64,000 bases of DNA from Myxococcota bacterium (lineage in GTDB: Bacteria; Myxococcota_A; SURF-8), in NCBI GenBank assembly GCA_965140415.1, contig OZ223209.1, forward strand, positions 256,001 to 320,000. The letters are read 5' to 3'. Position 1 is the first letter of the stretch. The number at the start of each line of letters is the position of its first letter. The notes beneath the pieces are model-generated. The model made no database searches. It was not told where the DNA came from and saw only the letters and a program-made list of their open reading frames with translations. This document shows, piece by piece, positions 5,536 to 63,077 of the stretch. The translations under genes and the position numbers were made by a program.

Positions 5536-6233
5536 GCGACGGCTTCTCTCGCTTCGTCATTGATGATCTTGCCATCCCGCAGCGTGATGATGCGATGAGC
5601 GCGGGACATGACGCGCGGATCGTGGGTGCTGAAAACGAAGGTCGTGCCGCGTTTTTCGTTAAGCCGCTGCATCAGATCCAGCAACGCTTCGGCGGTTTTA
5701 CTGTCTACATTGGCGGTCGGCTCATCCGCCAGCACCAGCGCAGGTTCGGCCACCACGGCGCGCGCGATGGCGACACGCTGCTGCTGCCCACCGGAAAGCT
5801 GATCGGGACGCCGGTCTAACTTGTCACCCAAGCCGACTTCTTCCAGAATGGCCGTGACTTTCCGCCGCCGTTCTTCTTCCGGTACGCCGCGCAGCAGCAA
5901 TACGAATTCCGCGTTTTCATAGGCGGTCAATACCGGGATCAGGTTATAAGCCTGAAAGATGAAACCGATCTTGTCCAGCCGCACCTTGGCCAGATTTCCA
6001 GCCGACACGGTGCCGTAATCCAATCCATCCACGATAATTCTACCGGAAGTGGGAGAATCGAGCGCGCCGATGAGATTCAAAGCCGTTGTCTTGCCCGAAC
6101 CAGACGGACCGCTTAATGCGGCGAATTCACCGGGCTGTATTTCAAGGCTGATGCCGTCTAAGGCCTGCACCTTCATCCCACCCTGGTAATAAGTACGAAC
6201 GACCTGGTCGAGTTGTACGATTGCTTGTGACAT
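5532..6233 (-). CDS. ABC transporter ATP-binding protein (LolD/MacB type)
   Basis: Walker A GPSGSGKT, signature LSGGQQQRVAIAR, Walker B LVLADEPT, H-loop STHD. Confidence 0.95.
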   Translation of the reverse strand: MSQAIVQLDQVVRTYYQGGMKVQALDGISLEIQPGEFAALSGPSGSGKTTALNLIGALDSPTSGRIIVDGLDYGTVSAGNLAKVRLDKIGFIFQAYNLIPVLTAYENAEFVLLLRGVPEEERRRKVTAILEEVGLGDKLDRRPDQLSGGQQQRVAIARAVVAEPALVLADEPTANVDSKTAEALLDLMQRLNEKRGTTFVFSTHDPRVMSRAHRIITLRDGKIINDEAREAVA

Positions 6234-6242
6234 GAAAACCTC

Positions 6243-7475
6243 CTACAGTCCTTTGATGACTTCCACCGGCTTGGTGCGGGTGGCCAGAAATGCCGGGTAA
6301 ATTCCCGAGAGCAGAATAAGCAGGAACACTCCGCCGACGATGGTTGCAACGTGGTCGACGTACAGAATCGATTTGTACACCGGGTCCAGCGCCACACCGC
6401 CGAAACTCTGTTCCTCTTTCATCCACTGGCTGGTGTCCAGTCCGGTGGTGCTGAGATACCAGTACATCAAAAACGATACCCCTAGCCCCACCACGATTCC
6501 GACGATGGCCAGCCACACCGTTTCGGTCATGATCAAACGCCACAGGCGGCCATGAGTCATACCTACCGCCAACATGATGCCGAATTCGCGGAAGCGCTCC
6601 AGTACGCTCATCATGATCGTGTTCAATATTCCTGCCGTTACCAGCAGGAAAATGAAGATCTGGAAAATATAGTTACTGCCGCGATCCATGGCGATGGCCC
6701 CGGCCACTTCCGGCATCGTCTGATGCCAGCTTACCGCTACGGCGCTGTGATCCGCCGCCAGCGGTGTGACTTCCTTTGCAATCTGAGCCGCTTCGCGCTG
6801 ATCGGTAATGTACAGGGCAATCTGGGTGGCGTCATTCGCATCGTATCCCAATAAACCGCGCATGAAATCGATCGGCAACAGAATCATGTAATTGTCGATT
6901 TCCAGAGTGCCGGTTTCGAAGATGCCCACGACACGCACCAGGCCGTTTACGACTTCGCCGCTTTTATCCGCCAGTGTCAACACCAGCTTGGATTTCAGCT
7001 TGACGCCCAGGCGCTTGGCCATACCCGAGCCGATCATCACCTTGCGCCCCGTGCGACCGGGCAGGCTTTCGCCTTCGATGATGTGCTCGAAGGGAAACAG
7101 GATCTTGCTTTCGATAGTCGGATCGACGGCGGCAAAGGCGGCACCGGTCGTTTCGGCGGCGCTGGCAACCATCACCTGCCCTGCGATGCGCACTGCAACG
7201 TGATCGATGTCTTCTCGCATCGTCAGATGCTCGGCCAGCCGGTAGCTGTCCGACACCACCAGATCCGTTCCCGGCTTGTCGCGATAACCGATCGGCTCCA
7301 CTGTTACATGGCCGTAGCCGCTGCGCGCGGCGCTGTCGATCATCTTGGCGTAACTGCCGTCAGCCAGGGTGGTGAAGGTAAAGGAAAGGAAAAAGGCGAA
7401 CACCACCGAGATCAATGTAATCAGGGTCCGGCGCTTGGCGCGCCACAAGTTTCTCCAGGCCAGTTTGAATATCAT
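6243..7475 (-). CDS. ABC transporter permease (FtsX/LolE/MacB family)
   Basis: LAWRNLWRAKRRT N-terminus, large periplasmic domain, SVLERFREFGIMLAVG motif. Confidence 0.92.
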   Translation of the reverse strand: MIFKLAWRNLWRAKRRTLITLISVVFAFFLSFTFTTLADGSYAKMIDSAARSGYGHVTVEPIGYRDKPGTDLVVSDSYRLAEHLTMREDIDHVAVRIAGQVMVASAAETTGAAFAAVDPTIESKILFPFEHIIEGESLPGRTGRKVMIGSGMAKRLGVKLKSKLVLTLADKSGEVVNGLVRVVGIFETGTLEIDNYMILLPIDFMRGLLGYDANDATQIALYITDQREAAQIAKEVTPLAADHSAVAVSWHQTMPEVAGAIAMDRGSNYIFQIFIFLLVTAGILNTIMMSVLERFREFGIMLAVGMTHGRLWRLIMTETVWLAIVGIVVGLGVSFLMYWYLSTTGLDTSQWMKEEQSFGGVALDPVYKSILYVDHVATIVGGVFLLILLSGIYPAFLATRTKPVEVIKGL

Positions 7476-25811: not shown

Positions 25812-27548
25812 ATGGCAAGCAAGGCCTTAATTCTGATTATCGACGACGAGCGCCCTATCCGCGTGACGTTTCAGCTCTTTCTGGAAAACGAAGGATACGA
25901 GGTCGTTACCGCCGCCGACTACGAACAGGCCAATCTGGTGCTTGGCGAAGTGACTCCCGATGCCATTATTACGGATATCGTTCTGGGTAATAAAAGCGGA
26001 GTGGATTTGCTGCGCGATGTCAAACTGGCGGGTATCGAATCCCCGGTGGTGCTGATTACCGGCGAACCCAACCTGCATACCGCCATCGACGGACTGAGAC
26101 TGGGAGCTTTCGATTACCTGACCAAACCGGTCGATAAACAGAAACTGGTCGAAGTCACCTTCCGGGCGCTGCGCTATCAGCAATTGCTCAAGGAGCGCAA
26201 GCAGCTTTCCGAAGAGCGCGAATCCATGCGCAAGCGTATGCAGGCGGTTTTCGACAGTGTCGGAGAAGGTTTGCTGCTGCTGGATGAAGAACTGCGCGTG
26301 CGTGAAATCAATCGCGCCGGTCTTAAATTGTTGCGCATTTCCCGCGAAGAAACCCTGGGGCGTAGGCTGAGCGTTCTGTTCCCCAGAATTTACGAACAGA
26401 TACAGACCGATATTCCAACGGTGCTGCAACGACGTCACGCCTTTGTCGAAGCCACGGTCACCGATCCCTGCCAGCGGGGAGGGGAAGACGTCGTGTACGT
26501 GCGTTTGTCGCCGACTCAGCAAGACGGCGCACATGGCGATAAAGCGGTGGTGGTGATTCGCGATATCACCAGGCTGCGTCACCTGGAACAGCATGTGGTC
26601 GAACGGACGCAGTTCCATCATCTTATTGGTCGCAGCAAACCGATGCAGGAAGTGTATCAACTGCTCGAAGCCTTGAAAGACACCGACACCACGGTTCTGA
26701 TTCAAGGTGAAAGCGGCACGGGAAAGGAACTGGTGGCCGCCGCGCTGCACTATCAGGGTCCGCGCTCTACCGGACCGTTTATTCCTGTCAACTGTACCGC
26801 CTTGAACGAGCAATTGTTGGAGAGCGAGCTTTTCGGTCACGTCAAGGGCGCCTTCACCGGGGCGATTGCCAGTAAAATGGGGCGCTTCGAAGCGGCTGAA
26901 AACGGTACGATTTTCCTGGATGAAATCGGCGATATTTCACCGAAACTGCAAACCAAGCTTTTACGAGCCTTGCAGGAACGCACCATCGAGCGAGTCGGTG
27001 AGAATCGCCCTCGAAAGGTGAACGTGCGGGTAATCGCCGCAACCAACTCGGATATGGACGCCAAGGTTCGCGACGGTCTGTTCCGGGAAGATCTCTTTTA
27101 CCGGCTCAATGTCGTGCGCATCATGATGCCGGCATTACGCGAGAAAAAAGAAGACATTCCGTTACTGATCGAAAACTTCCGCCAAAAACAGCTTGCCCGC
27201 ATGAAAAAACCCATCGAAGGCTTTACCGATGAAGCCATGCAGAGCATGATTCTGCATCAATGGCCGGGCAACGTGCGCGAATTGGAAAATGCAGTCGAGC
27301 ACGCGTTTATCATGAGCAACGGTCCCCTGATCGACATCATGCATCTGCCGAAATCCGTAATCAACCGACCCGCCGGAAAAACCTCCGGGATCTCCACGTT
27401 GCGGGATTTGTCCGAGCAGGAAGAGTTACGCCAGGCGCTGATTTCGGCTGGTGGCAATCGTGCCAAAGCGGCGCGCCTGCTGGGCATCAACCGTACCACA
27501 TTGTATCGGCGCATGCAGCGCTGGGGAATGTCCGACAGCTCGCAATAG
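25812..27548 (+). CDS. Sigma-54-dependent response regulator (REC-PAS-AAA+-Fis HTH)
   Basis: Receiver (IIDDE, ITDIV, TKP), PAS, GESGTGKE, GAFTGA, FLDEIGD, WPGNVRELEN, NRAKAARLLGINRTTLYRRM. Confidence 0.96.
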   Translation: MASKALILIIDDERPIRVTFQLFLENEGYEVVTAADYEQANLVLGEVTPDAIITDIVLGNKSGVDLLRDVKLAGIESPVVLITGEPNLHTAIDGLRLGAFDYLTKPVDKQKLVEVTFRALRYQQLLKERKQLSEERESMRKRMQAVFDSVGEGLLLLDEELRVREINRAGLKLLRISREETLGRRLSVLFPRIYEQIQTDIPTVLQRRHAFVEATVTDPCQRGGEDVVYVRLSPTQQDGAHGDKAVVVIRDITRLRHLEQHVVERTQFHHLIGRSKPMQEVYQLLEALKDTDTTVLIQGESGTGKELVAAALHYQGPRSTGPFIPVNCTALNEQLLESELFGHVKGAFTGAIASKMGRFEAAENGTIFLDEIGDISPKLQTKLLRALQERTIERVGENRPRKVNVRVIAATNSDMDAKVRDGLFREDLFYRLNVVRIMMPALREKKEDIPLLIENFRQKQLARMKKPIEGFTDEAMQSMILHQWPGNVRELENAVEHAFIMSNGPLIDIMHLPKSVINRPAGKTSGISTLRDLSEQEELRQALISAGGNRAKAARLLGINRTTLYRRMQRWGMSDSSQ

Positions 27549-27550
27549 CC

Positions 27551-27621
27551 GCAACACTTCTGTTGCACTGCAACAAGATTTGCGCACCACTACTGTTGCG
27601 CCAAATTTTTACTCCGCAACA
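27551..27621. promoter_or_regulatory. Putative upstream activator sequences for the adjacent sigma-54 activator
   Basis: Perfect palindrome TGTTGCA-C-TGCAACA (27561-27575) plus further GCAACA/TGTTGC half-sites at 27551, 27594 and 27616. Confidence 0.6.
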
Positions 27622-27690
27622 CTTTTCAACACTTGCTTCCTAACTAGCCGGTATAACAAAGGAATTAAAAACGTCATTTTCTGTTCATTG

Positions 27691-27707
27691 TTGGCATGAA
27701 CATTGCA
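27691..27707 (+). promoter_or_regulatory. Sigma-54 (-24/-12) promoter
   Basis: TTGGCATGAACATTGCA: GG at 27693-4 and GC at 27705-6 with exact N10 spacing, about 120 nt downstream of the UAS-like palindrome. Confidence 0.8.
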
Positions 27708-27716
27708 GAAAGTAAG

Positions 27717-28205
27717 TGCCGTTCCGATTGGCAATCTCTCTATCTTTTTGTAATATGCTCACGATTTATTTTCGGGCCGTTTCTTACTGTGGGCTTTTAC
27801 AGAGAAATTGGTAAGCGGGCAAGTTGAGATGTTTTCTGCTCTTTGCACCAGAATAATCGAGAAAAACACTCACGCACTGCTTAAAAATAGATAAGACTTT
27901 ACGGTGTGTGTGTCACATAGCTTGAAATCCCGGAGGGACGCACGCCTCTGGATCAGTCGCCCTGGGCCCTCGACCCGTTTCCAATCCAATCCGATTCCCG
28001 AATTCCCAGGGAGGCGACCCTTCCATTATTTTTTTCTGTGCGAATCTTCATTTTTCTCCCCCCTTGTAGGAGCCTCTTCCGCGCCACACCGGAAGAGGTT
28101 TCCCTTTTTATGCCCCCATTTTCTCTGTAAGACGAGTCGGTAAGAAAAATATTCACAATAATGTGAGTGATTCACAAAAAAAGTGGCTTGCTCTTTGGGA
28201 TGGCG
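27717..28205 (+). ncRNA. Candidate large structured non-coding RNA (about 490 nt), family not recognised
   Basis: Starts at the expected sigma-54 TSS; nested 5'/3' long-range helices and five internal hairpins with + strand G-U wobbles; no credible ORF. Confidence 0.6.
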
Positions 28206-28222
28206 GTCGTTAAACGGGTTAT

Positions 28223-28385
28223 TAGAGGAGATATCATTCGTTTCTGCCCATCGAGTACTCGGGATGTGGCATGGTCAGACCGTGTGTAACCTATTGAAGA
28301 CACACAGCCTTCCACGATCTTCGATCGCGTAAGGCTATGGCACAAACTCATAAAATCAACGGCTAAAATTGATTAAGAGTTACTA
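28223..28385 (-). repeat. Dispersed TAG...CTCTA-bounded structured repeat, copy 2 of 3 (internal 21-nt deletion)
   Basis: The reverse complement aligns with 4123-4308 but lacks the CGGAA..TTCCG hairpin. Confidence 0.85.
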
Positions 28386-28430
28386 TAGACCGCGCCACCC
28401 CGAAATCAGTTAGCTTTGTAAAAATCGAGC

Positions 28431-28844
28431 TTAGCTCAACCCTTGACCGGTAGTGGTGGGAATGAATTTGCCGTATTTCACGCCACGCACGCTCACCAAG
28501 GCTTCGCCGAGTTTCTGAATGTCGCGGGTTTTTCCCTTTAAAATCAGAATTTCCAGGCAGTTGTCGTGATCGACATGTACGTGTAAGGTGCTGACGATAT
28601 TGGCGAAATGATCGTGCTGGACATCGGCCAGGCGCTGGCTTAAATCCAAGGTGTGGTGATCGTAGACCATCATCACTACGCCCATGCTGCGACTGGCCGC
28701 CGATTGCCACTGTTTCTGCACCAGTTTTTCACGGATCAAATCGCGTACCGCTTCGGAACGGTTGGTGTAACCCCGTTCGGAGATCAATTCATCGAACTGC
28801 TCTAAAAGATCATCTTCCAAAGAAATTCCGATTCGTTGTAACAC
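28431..28844 (-). CDS. nikR: Nickel-responsive transcriptional regulator NikR
   Basis: Ribbon-helix-helix RIGISL...GYTNRSEAVRDLIR; Ni ligands in QHDH...STLHVHVDHDNCLE; GTG start. Confidence 0.95.
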   Translation of the reverse strand: MLQRIGISLEDDLLEQFDELISERGYTNRSEAVRDLIREKLVQKQWQSAASRSMGVVMMVYDHHTLDLSQRLADVQHDHFANIVSTLHVHVDHDNCLEILILKGKTRDIQKLGEALVSVRGVKYGKFIPTTTGQGLS

Positions 28845-42337: not shown

Positions 42338-43996
42338 TCAGTGATGATTTGACCGTTTCAGGCTTTCCAGATAGGCTCTGATTTCTTCATCCGGTCGATC
42401 CGCTTCACCGGGCTCTTGCAGCAGATCTTCCAGCACCGAGACGGCCTGATTCGTTTCACCCTGCGCCGCCAGGGCCTGGGCAAGGTGGAAACGGAACATG
42501 CCATGAGGCTGAATCTCATAAGCCTTCCGGAACAGGATCTGGGCCGCCGCAGGATTTCCCTGCTTGAGTTGAATCCGACCGCAGACACTATTCGCGTTCG
42601 CCAGAAATTCACGATCGGTTTTCGTCCATGCGCGTTCCGATCGCAATGCGCTATCGATTCTGGGTAACATTTTTACGCACTGCTTCTCGGCGGCCTCGAT
42701 CAACCGGTGTTCCGACAACCACGTGGCCAATGTGACATCGACGCGCAAAGTGGCCCTATCGCTCATCGAGTCGGCAGCAAAGAGCGTGCCGTCGCCCTGC
42801 CAGTCCAGCGATCGCAGATGAACTTTTGCGCCCCAGATGAGTGAAAGCAGGATCACAGCGGCAAAAGCGAGCCTGGCGATCCGCCGATTAGCTTGTACCT
42901 GTTGCAAACCCCAAGCCAGCAACAGCATGACGCCGACCAGCGGGAGATGAAGAAAACGGGGAGCGAAAATGCAATAGGCCAGTATGACCATGTTGGAAGC
43001 CAGGCTCAAGGTGGCCGGATACCAGAGCATCATCCACAGATGGCCCGGTTTCTTTTTCCAGACCTTCCATGTAGCAAGTGCGTATGCAAGCAACAACAGC
43101 AGCGCAGCGCCTCCCTGCCAGGCAGGGGGGATTCCGGTTACCGGATAGGTGAAGTCCGCTCGAGCACCGGCGAACCCGCTGAGATGCATCAGATAATTCA
43201 ATTGAAGTCCGAGAGCGGCCCACCAGGCTTCAAGTCTCGGAAGTTCATGCAGTTGATTGTCCACCAGAGGCACCTGGCTGCCTTCGAAAGCACCGAAGAG
43301 CAGCCTCTGATAAAGCAGGTAGGCCAAGGCGACTGCAATCAGTGACAGCGTGCAGGCTGCTTGAGAGGCAATGCGCCCGCCCTTTCGTTGGTCGGGAAAC
43401 CAGATGAGGGCAAGGGCCGGAACGATCAACGTGATTCCGTTTTCCTTGGCCAGGATGGCGCAGAGATACAATAGGGCAGCCGCCAGTGCCACACGCTTGC
43501 TTGCTTGCGGAAATTTCAACAAGACAATAACAAGCAGCAGAGCGAAAATCGTACATAGAATTTCCGCTCGTCCGACGACGGGATTCACGTTTTCCGCCAG
43601 TACGGGATGCAATAGAAAAAGCAGGCTACAGGCAAAGGCCGGGATTCGATCGAAAAAGCGCCGCGCCAGCAGGAAAAGCAAAAAGGCCGAAAGAGCGTGC
43701 AGCAGAATATTGTTCAGTCTGAAGACGAAGGGATTGAAATCGAAAATCTGCTTCTCGAGCATGAAACTGGCCGTGGTCAGCGGCCTGAAAGTCCGGGCAT
43801 AGGTGAACCAGTTGCTACTCAGCAGGTCCGACCATTGAAGCTCCGCAACCGTTGGGTTGTTAAGCAGCGCTTCATGGTCATCGAATACGAAATTCCCGGA
43901 TAAGGATGGAAAATAAGCCGCCATGGCACAAACGAGCAGGACAAACAGAATGAAAATGTTTGTACGAGCAACTTGATCACCGGAATAACTGTCCAA
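42338..43996 (-). CDS. TMTC-like (GT-C) membrane glycosyltransferase with C-terminal TPR
   Basis: FVFDD...NP, FRPLT, NILLH, LFLLHP..AENV..VVGRAEIL, LAKENGI, APRFLHLP, then TPR helices. Probable TTG start at 43996 behind AAGGGGA. Confidence 0.8.
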   Translation of the reverse strand: MDSYSGDQVARTNIFILFVLLVCAMAAYFPSLSGNFVFDDHEALLNNPTVAELQWSDLLSSNWFTYARTFRPLTTASFMLEKQIFDFNPFVFRLNNILLHALSAFLLFLLARRFFDRIPAFACSLLFLLHPVLAENVNPVVGRAEILCTIFALLLVIVLLKFPQASKRVALAAALLYLCAILAKENGITLIVPALALIWFPDQRKGGRIASQAACTLSLIAVALAYLLYQRLLFGAFEGSQVPLVDNQLHELPRLEAWWAALGLQLNYLMHLSGFAGARADFTYPVTGIPPAWQGGAALLLLLAYALATWKVWKKKPGHLWMMLWYPATLSLASNMVILAYCIFAPRFLHLPLVGVMLLLAWGLQQVQANRRIARLAFAAVILLSLIWGAKVHLRSLDWQGDGTLFAADSMSDRATLRVDVTLATWLSEHRLIEAAEKQCVKMLPRIDSALRSERAWTKTDREFLANANSVCGRIQLKQGNPAAAQILFRKAYEIQPHGMFRFHLAQALAAQGETNQAVSVLEDLLQEPGEADRPDEEIRAYLESLKRSNHH

Positions 43997-62909: not shown

Positions 62910-63077
62910 ACCAGGTATTATTCACTGGTTCTATGAATTTGTGCCATAGTCTTACACGATCCGAGATCGTGGAAGGCTGTGTGTTTTCTTATAGTTACAC
63001 ACGGCTTCCCGGAATCTCCATTCCGTTAGAACAGGCCACATCCCGATTACTCCCTATAATGAATGATATCTGCTCTA
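62907..63077 (+). repeat. Dispersed TAG...CTCTA-bounded structured repeat, copy 3 of 3
   Basis: Aligns with 4123-4308 from TTTGTGCCATA to TCTGCTCTA; the left part is shorter and more divergent. Confidence 0.85.

Follow-up and report, generated by a model that had tools for sequence, protein, structure and literature searches.

A candidate large sigma-54-dependent non-coding RNA encoded directly behind its putative activator gene in a Myxococcota bacterium, with a counterpart in a sister genus

Directly behind the gene of a sigma-54-type response regulator, a Myxococcota genome carries a region in which a sigma-54-dependent non-coding RNA is probably made. The region lies in the window, by which we mean the whole 64-kb stretch of DNA analysed here, part of a single-contig genome of 5.98 Mb (G000). 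The full model, which we favour with somewhat less assurance, is that of an activator-dependent RNA of ~390 nt with a functional 3' domain, to which a ~489-nt read-through form is added in this species.

The putative activator gene (25812-27548, + strand) encodes a response regulator of 578 aa in which Pfam recognizes REC, PAS, sigma-54-interaction AAA+ and Fis-type HTH domains (Response_reg, E = 1.2e-23; PAS_4, 5e-13; Sigma54_activat, 5.6e-70; HTH_8, 1.3e-13). An MMPL transporter gene lies upstream of it, and a domain scan of its neighbours revealed no histidine kinase gene among those scanned. The genome has an rpoN gene, seen as one match to Sigma54_DBD (223.6 bits) within a 514-aa open frame. 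As had been claimed on a first reading of the letters, the RNA gene lies directly behind the activator gene, and this arrangement recurs in L008, a locus of genome G001, which represents one sister genus. On the other side, nikR (28431-28844, minus strand) is convergent with the RNA gene, and between the promoter and nikR there are short ORFs only.

The predicted upstream activator sites (27551-27621) consist of two palindromes, GCAACACTTCTGTTGC (27551-27566) and GCACCACTACTGTTGC (27584-27599), which are 33 bp apart and are accompanied by extra half-sites at 27570-27575 and 27616-27621. The first palindrome begins three bases past the stop codon of the activator gene, and the two lie 93-141 bp upstream of the promoter. 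Their identification in the sequence-only reading is upheld by the coordinates, by their rarity in the genome, and by the recurrence of the same half-sites in L008. In fact, GCAACA-N4-TGTTGC with at most one mismatch occurs 22 times in the 5.98-Mb genome, and two adjacent copies are found only here. Elsewhere in the genome, outside the window, lies a paralogue (G000:C1:2851611-2853006) that corresponds to the PAS-AAA+-HTH portion of the activator at 42% identity and contains a single TGA in frame; 88 nt upstream of it lies GCAACAGTACTGTTGT, which resembles the upstream sites of the activator.

The sigma-54 (-24/-12) promoter, TGGCATGAACATTGCA (27692-27707, + strand), agrees with the consensus at 11 of the 12 specified positions. 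It is the only exact TGGCAY-N5-TTGCW match in the 64 kb, whereas shuffled versions of the window gave a mean of 0.15 matches (at least one in 13 of 100 shuffles); the whole genome has 32 matches on both strands. Being near-consensus and having a counterpart in L008, the promoter stands as it was first proposed. From the usual sigma-54 spacing, transcription is predicted to start near 27717-27720. The features of a sigma-54/activator-dependent sRNA gene, i.e., GG and GC elements at the -24/-12 spacing, sites ~80-150 bp upstream, a putative cognate activator and rpoN, are all present. Two other places in the window, 63427 (-) and 42791 (-), carry TGGTACGCAGTTTGCT and CGGCACGCTCTTTGCT, respectively, each with 11 of the 12 sigma-54 consensus positions, and a TGTTGC...GCAACA pair is located at 42900, near the latter site.

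The view that no credible ORF follows the promoter is supported by the comparison of the two sequences and by the lack of a homologue. Over 94 aligned columns, substitutions are spread evenly over the three codon positions (12/31, 13/32 and 12/31), with no codon periodicity. The only sizeable + strand ORF, of 79 aa (27904-28143), starts with GTG, crosses the terminator and ends behind it; it has neither an ATG nor an obvious ribosome-binding site, and no homologue was found among database proteins of 43-139 aa. One could nevertheless suppose that the promoter drives a small protein gene, either this ORF or a shorter one in the 5' part, as in both species one and the same frame runs through the core without a stop (56 aa from TTG in L008) and the translations are alike over 14 residues (STRFQSNPIPEFPG vs STHFKPSPIPEKPG). 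However, the other two frames look equally alike, so this likeness reflects conservation of nucleotides, and in L008 a stop interrupts the minus-strand frame that corresponds to an ORF of the window, as read from both sequences. Given also the even substitution pattern and the make-up of the ORF, we regard a small protein gene as highly improbable, and proceed on the basis that the product is a non-coding RNA.

The whole module, comprising palindromes, promoter, core and terminator, recurs in L008. There, palindromes with the same half-sites begin 2 nt past the activator stop codon (5727 and 5741), and the promoter, TGGCACACATATTGCT (5875-5890), occupies the same relative position as in the window. 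The distance from the predicted start to the core is 225 nt in L008 and 250 nt in the window. A 28-nt stretch of L008 is identical to window 27968-27995 at 22 positions and has the conserved TGTGCG next to it, after which comes a strong hairpin with a T-rich tail. No convincing alignment was obtained between the first ~230 nt of the two RNAs. The L008 RNA from start to terminator is well folded (z = -3.06), and in its minimum free energy (MFE) structure the 5' end is paired with sequence immediately preceding the terminator. The conserved unit is a 3' domain of ~150 nt rather than a large closed fold. Further downstream in L008 there is a 366-aa ORF on the minus strand, equal in length to the window's glycosyltransferase.

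The conserved core domain (27939-28042, + strand) encloses the hairpin 27956-28018, the large loop of which bears the motif CCTCGACCCnnTTCnAAnCCAnTCCGAT (27968-27995). At its base, CGCAC (27939-27943) can pair with GUGCG (28038-28042), both of which are invariant in the two species. Between the window and L008, one pair of the core stem is changed on both sides and one on one side, with none broken. The core is followed by a terminator-like hairpin (28069-28110, + strand) of 13 pairs and then TTTCCCTTTTTAT. Of its 10 pairs that align with L008, 3 carry changes in both bases, 2 in one base and 5 in neither, and none is broken; the hairpin energies are -20.0 kcal/mol in the window and -28.4 kcal/mol in L008. 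The region around 28110 is the likely 3' end of the conserved ~390-nt form; counted from the predicted start, the terminator is reached after ~393 nt. In the consensus of the 3' domain, 8 of the 28 predicted pairs are changed on both sides and none is broken, a covariation that is anecdotal because only two homologues are known. When the 3' domains of both species were folded separately, they adopted the same nested layout, with CGCAC-GUGCG around the loop-bearing hairpin. On its own, the 3' domain has no extra stability over shuffles in either species (z = -0.05 and 0.12). The signal in this domain is one of conservation and compensation, not of thermodynamic stability. The conserved domain is 65% pyrimidine.

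The 3' half of the terminator could also be paired by an upstream segment (-19.5 kcal/mol in the window and -23.3 kcal/mol in L008). Since pairing of this strength arises in 46 of 300 and 96 of 300 shuffles, respectively, regulation of read-through by such an antiterminator was dropped from consideration.

How widely the RNA occurs was addressed in several ways. The activator is found in three of the six genomes of the family, namely G000, G001 (66% identity) and G004 (63%), and a scan for activator relatives yielded two orthologues that are full-length, both from Myxococcota assemblies. The covariance model R1, built on the 3' domain, scored 170 and 184 bits on the two loci and had matches in 2 of 61 relatives; it did not find the RNA in the other 59. 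With filters off, the model gave nothing better than E = 1.4 at 10 other activator loci. A motif search allowing up to two mismatches returned 3 of the 401 genomes of the phylum (G000, G001 and G122), 2 of them true matches; the match in G122 lies within GC-rich coding sequence and was judged to be due to chance. BLAST with the region found G000 only, among 41 genomes. In metagenomes, an exact-pattern scan gave no match, and the activator protein as query led to 47 loci, none of them a close orthologue, the best having 57% identity.

The expectation that the RNA would be conserved behind orthologous activators holds only in part: the module is present in L008, but G004 lacks the RNA and the long stem described below is not conserved. 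In G004, the palindromes and the RNA are both absent behind the 63%-identical activator (L007, 5729-5905). A weaker sigma-54-like sequence, TGGCGAGTGATTTGCA (10 of 12 positions), is located there at 5869 on the opposite strand, pointing back towards the gene. Calditrichia and other loci with activators of 45-57% identity were set aside, as their sigma-54 promoters are otherwise arranged, before protein genes and without this RNA. Three Calditrichia assemblies have a sigma-54 promoter-like site just past a shorter activator gene (L014 5450-5857, L011 5515 and L012 5468); in L014, the one locus for which ORFs were listed, the site precedes a 118-aa ORF, which is a protein-coding arrangement.

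In addition to the conserved 3' domain, the RNA region of the window has a long terminal stem. The sequence-only reading had taken the product to be a closed RNA of ~490 nt. The terminal stem on which it relied is real, but it spans the conserved terminator-like hairpin and is absent from L008, where pairing of the 5' region with the region behind the terminator is unexceptional (z = -0.4). The 5' arm (27717-27825, + strand) extends from the predicted start, and L008 does not share its sequence. The 3' arm (28107-28205, + strand) is specific to this species and sits behind the terminator, because the hairpin 28069-28102 and its T tract scan as an intrinsic terminator.

The nested long-range pairings that had been noticed are contained in the MFE structure of 27717-28205. 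On the + strand, this segment folds at -157.6 kcal/mol (z = -4.04), with none of 100 shuffles as good; on the minus strand the energy is -148.6 kcal/mol (z = -2.15), a value equalled or bettered by 3 of 100 shuffles. Folding against shuffled controls on both strands, which had been suggested as a check, thus came out in favour of the structure, and more so for the + strand. The two arms alone form a duplex of -77.2 kcal/mol compared with -36.3 +/- 5.0 in 200 shuffles (z = -8.2), which is 20 kcal/mol better than the minus-strand equivalent (-57.1 kcal/mol). A dimer fold of the arms has 72 inter-arm pairs, of which 38 are A-U, 25 G-C and 9 G-U. An alignment of the 5' arm to the reverse-complemented 3' arm, scored by match and mismatch only and without credit for G-U, had 68 matching positions; its score was 53.5, as against 18.4 +/- 4.5 (maximum 36) for 500 shuffles.

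Of the mismatches in this alignment, 11 would be G-U pairs on the + strand, compared with 1 of the A-C type. The + strand G-U excess that had been pointed out is therefore real, with P = 0.003 if both types are taken as equally likely (50:50), 0.03 when the null is adjusted for the base composition of the arms, and 0.054 if a 2:1 mutational bias is allowed. GC skew around the RNA region ranges from about zero to slightly below it and gives no evident sign of a G/T bias on the + strand. Neither the arms nor the region has a second copy in the genome, and for this reason a mobile-element or mobile-repeat origin of the arms was rejected. The duplex z-score, the G-U bias, the near-zero skew, the single copy and the start at the predicted +1, taken together, lead us to accept selection on a + strand RNA as the most likely cause of the long stem and its G-U bias.

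A different explanation of the stem is that only the ~390-nt RNA is functional and that the long inverted repeat is a relic at the DNA level, e.g., of an inverted duplication. That the one known homologue lacks the stem, that the 3' arm of the stem lies behind the terminator, and that the genome is rich in palindromic repeats are all consistent with such an origin. However, each arm is present only once in the genome, the repeat begins where transcription is predicted to start, the strand has no evident G/T bias, and the strand-specific G-U excess and the 20 kcal/mol difference between strands would be unexpected for neutral DNA. We consider a DNA relic rather unlikely, and selection at the RNA level remains our preferred explanation of the stem.

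The stem may also be read as the closing element of the main product. According to this interpretation, one RNA of ~489 nt (27717-28205) is made, the hairpin 28069-28102 is an internal arm, and RNase III releases the core. Besides the + strand folding, the duplex and the 11:1 ratio of G-U to A-C described above, this interpretation draws on the stem starting at the predicted +1, on the presence of an RNase III gene in the genome, and on the unremarkable fold that is left when the 3' arm is removed: the energy of the RNA ending at the terminator (27718-28112) is within the range of its shuffled controls (z = -1.52; 8 of 100 equally stable). On the other hand, the hairpin and the T tract are kept in L008 with compensatory changes while nothing downstream there pairs with the 5' region, and the window has no terminator-like site after 28205 on the + strand. 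A main product of ~489 nt is conceivable, but we would not expect it, and we prefer the model in which the ~390-nt form is the common product and the longer one arises by read-through.

Inside the stem, four of the five hairpins that had been proposed are present in the MFE structure (at about 27868-27912, 27927-27953, 27956-28018 and 28069-28102). The fifth, 27826-27871, is not; this segment forms no local hairpin and pairs long-range with 28029-28042. The RNA region is identical to the window in contigs X1-X3, while X4 has no coverage there, so no strain variation is seen at the RNA region among the first three.

The long stem ends 16 nt before an unrelated element, a copy of ~160 nt of a dispersed palindromic intergenic repeat (28222-28380), which bounds the RNA gene on the right and lies outside it. 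This repeat has 71 HSPs in the genome including itself, with a per-base cover of 44-69, and the contig depth summed over it is very high; along 80 nt it shares 86% identity with an element at 62923-63052.

The mechanism that we propose on these grounds is as follows. Once switched on, the orphan REC-PAS-AAA+ regulator would bind the two palindromes and open the sigma-54 polymerase complex at TGGCAT-N5-TTGCA, steps that are assigned to it because NtrC-type activators work in this way. Transcription would start near 27718, and the product common to both genera would end at the terminator near 28110, giving ~390 nt. Judging from its conservation, the working part is presumably the 3' domain, in which a stem of ~10 bp is predicted to hold open a pyrimidine-rich loop of ~38 nt, with the terminator hairpin next to it. 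The loop may serve as a single-stranded recognition surface and, most likely, would pair in trans with G-rich segments of mRNAs. Such pairing would have to proceed without Hfq, no gene for which was found at 93.7% genome completeness. In a target scan, the duplex energies of the loop with 11132 putative translation starts that have a ribosome-binding motif were broadly distributed, and no candidate stood out.

Transcripts that read through the terminator would gain 95 nt, which could zip onto the first 105 nt from the predicted +1 to form the imperfect 72-pair duplex and an RNA of ~489 nt. The closing duplex could stabilize the RNA, mask its 5' part, or offer a site for RNase III; processing by the latter is possible, as its gene is present. 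As a tentative suggestion, the gene may thus have two built-in isoforms, a terminated, open form of ~390 nt with a free 5' region and a read-through, locked form of ~489 nt. It is equally tentative that, with two such isoforms, the G-U-rich 72-pair duplex spanning the terminator would act as a self-masking or RNase III-gated switch. We found no description of a two-isoform switch of this kind among sigma-54-dependent sRNAs in the literature searched.

Instead of pairing with mRNAs, the RNA might act as a protein sponge like CrcZ or CsrB, with its loop or repeated motifs titrating an RNA-binding protein. CrcZ is ~407 nt long and titrates Hfq/Crc via A-rich motifs, and known CsrA sponges have dense arrays of GGA, far denser than those in the window RNA. 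With 390-490 nt, the RNA is near CrcZ in size, a CsrA gene is present in the genome, and the loop has, by eye, loosely repeated RAUCC-like units. Likewise, the CrcZ promoter is located just downstream of cbrB (PMC5113210). However, repeated k-mers clearly enriched in both species were not found, so that shared repeated motifs are unconvincing, and Hfq, the partner of CrcZ, was not found. GGA, the hallmark of CsrB/RsmZ, occurs 6 and 7 times in the two species vs 3.7 and 4.4 expected, which falls short of such RNAs. A sponge is therefore improbable in our estimation, and pairing of the loop with mRNAs is the function that we prefer.

Another thought is that the transcript acts in cis, either as a read-through antisense to nikR or, in L008, as the leader of a co-directional Rrf2-type gene. 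The convergence of nikR on the RNA gene would suit the former. For the latter, the Rrf2-like ORF of L008 follows on the same strand and is preceded by the palindrome GCAACACATATAGCTGTTGC (6403-6422), which has the same half-sites and lies just before the ribosome-binding site of that gene; the palindrome may be a second target of the activator or the Rrf2-type regulator's own operator. However, the neighbours differ between the two species in identity and orientation while the RNA core is conserved, and in the window the terminator and the repeat element lie in between. An action in cis is thus very improbable, and we retain an RNA that works in trans.

From a biological point of view, the activator, which has both a receiver and a PAS sensor domain, seems to control just one target in its vicinity, namely an RNA. 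If this is indeed its sole nearby target, the output of the signalling pathway runs through the RNA. The conserved pyrimidine-rich loop offers a defined place to mutate, and the long stem across the terminator, if used, would be an unusual way of obtaining two forms of one regulator. As the family is known from two genomes only, its practical value is modest.

With regard to known RNAs, none of the 4227 Rfam families matched anywhere in the window at gathering thresholds. At E <= 10, the 951-base region 27500-28450 gave five rows at chance level, none of them Pxr; L008 gave none at E <= 1, and the Pxr model RF01812 found nothing in the genome at E <= 1. The lack of an Rfam match, which had been named in advance as a sign of novelty, therefore holds with Pxr included, and places the RNA outside the described families. 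No description of it was found in the literature searched, the lists of predicted RNAs in supplementary files being outside that search.

To our knowledge, apart from Pxr almost no regulatory RNAs of Myxococcota are known. In the PxrR (Nla19)-Pxr system, which occurs in Myxococcus xanthus and other Cystobacterineae, the sRNA gene lies immediately downstream of the gene of an NtrC-like sigma-54 response regulator, and it has its own sigma-54 promoter, an upstream enhancer-binding region, and long and short forms of the RNA (PMC5568312, PMC5684412). The locus reported here is similar in that it belongs to the same phylum and that the gene of a sigma-54 response regulator is followed by a candidate RNA gene which has a sigma-54 promoter to itself. 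However, in contrast to Pxr, which has 108 nt and three stem-loops, the window RNA is about 390-489 nt long, i.e., three to four times longer, and unlike PxrR, its activator has a PAS domain and no adjacent kinase gene among the neighbours scanned.

Response regulators encoded next to sRNA genes with sigma-54 promoters are also found in other phyla, e.g., LuxO-Qrr in Vibrio and GlrR-GlmY in Enterobacteria; Qrr RNAs are short and Hfq-dependent, and GlmY is a short decoy RNA. Unlike these, which are known RNAs, the window RNA has no match in Rfam, a library that presumably also includes a model of CrcZ. In the sigma-54 regulome of Desulfovibrio vulgaris Hildenborough, a reconstruction has dedicated activators controlling four non-coding RNAs among 36 regulons (PMC4641369). 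The type of control proposed here is the same; the likeness is drawn from their description, the window RNA having no Rfam match.

As to size and arrangement, the CbrB-CrcZ system of Pseudomonas is a close parallel, as its sRNA gene is located directly downstream of cbrB and its promoter is dependent on RpoN and CbrB (PMC5113210). In both cases, a large RNA gene, here a candidate, lies directly downstream of the gene of its known or putative sigma-54 activator. However, the window RNA differs from CrcZ in that Hfq was not found, its conserved domain is pyrimidine-rich, it has no Rfam match, and it comes from another phylum. We class it as a new family of a known kind, a member of neither Pxr nor CrcZ.
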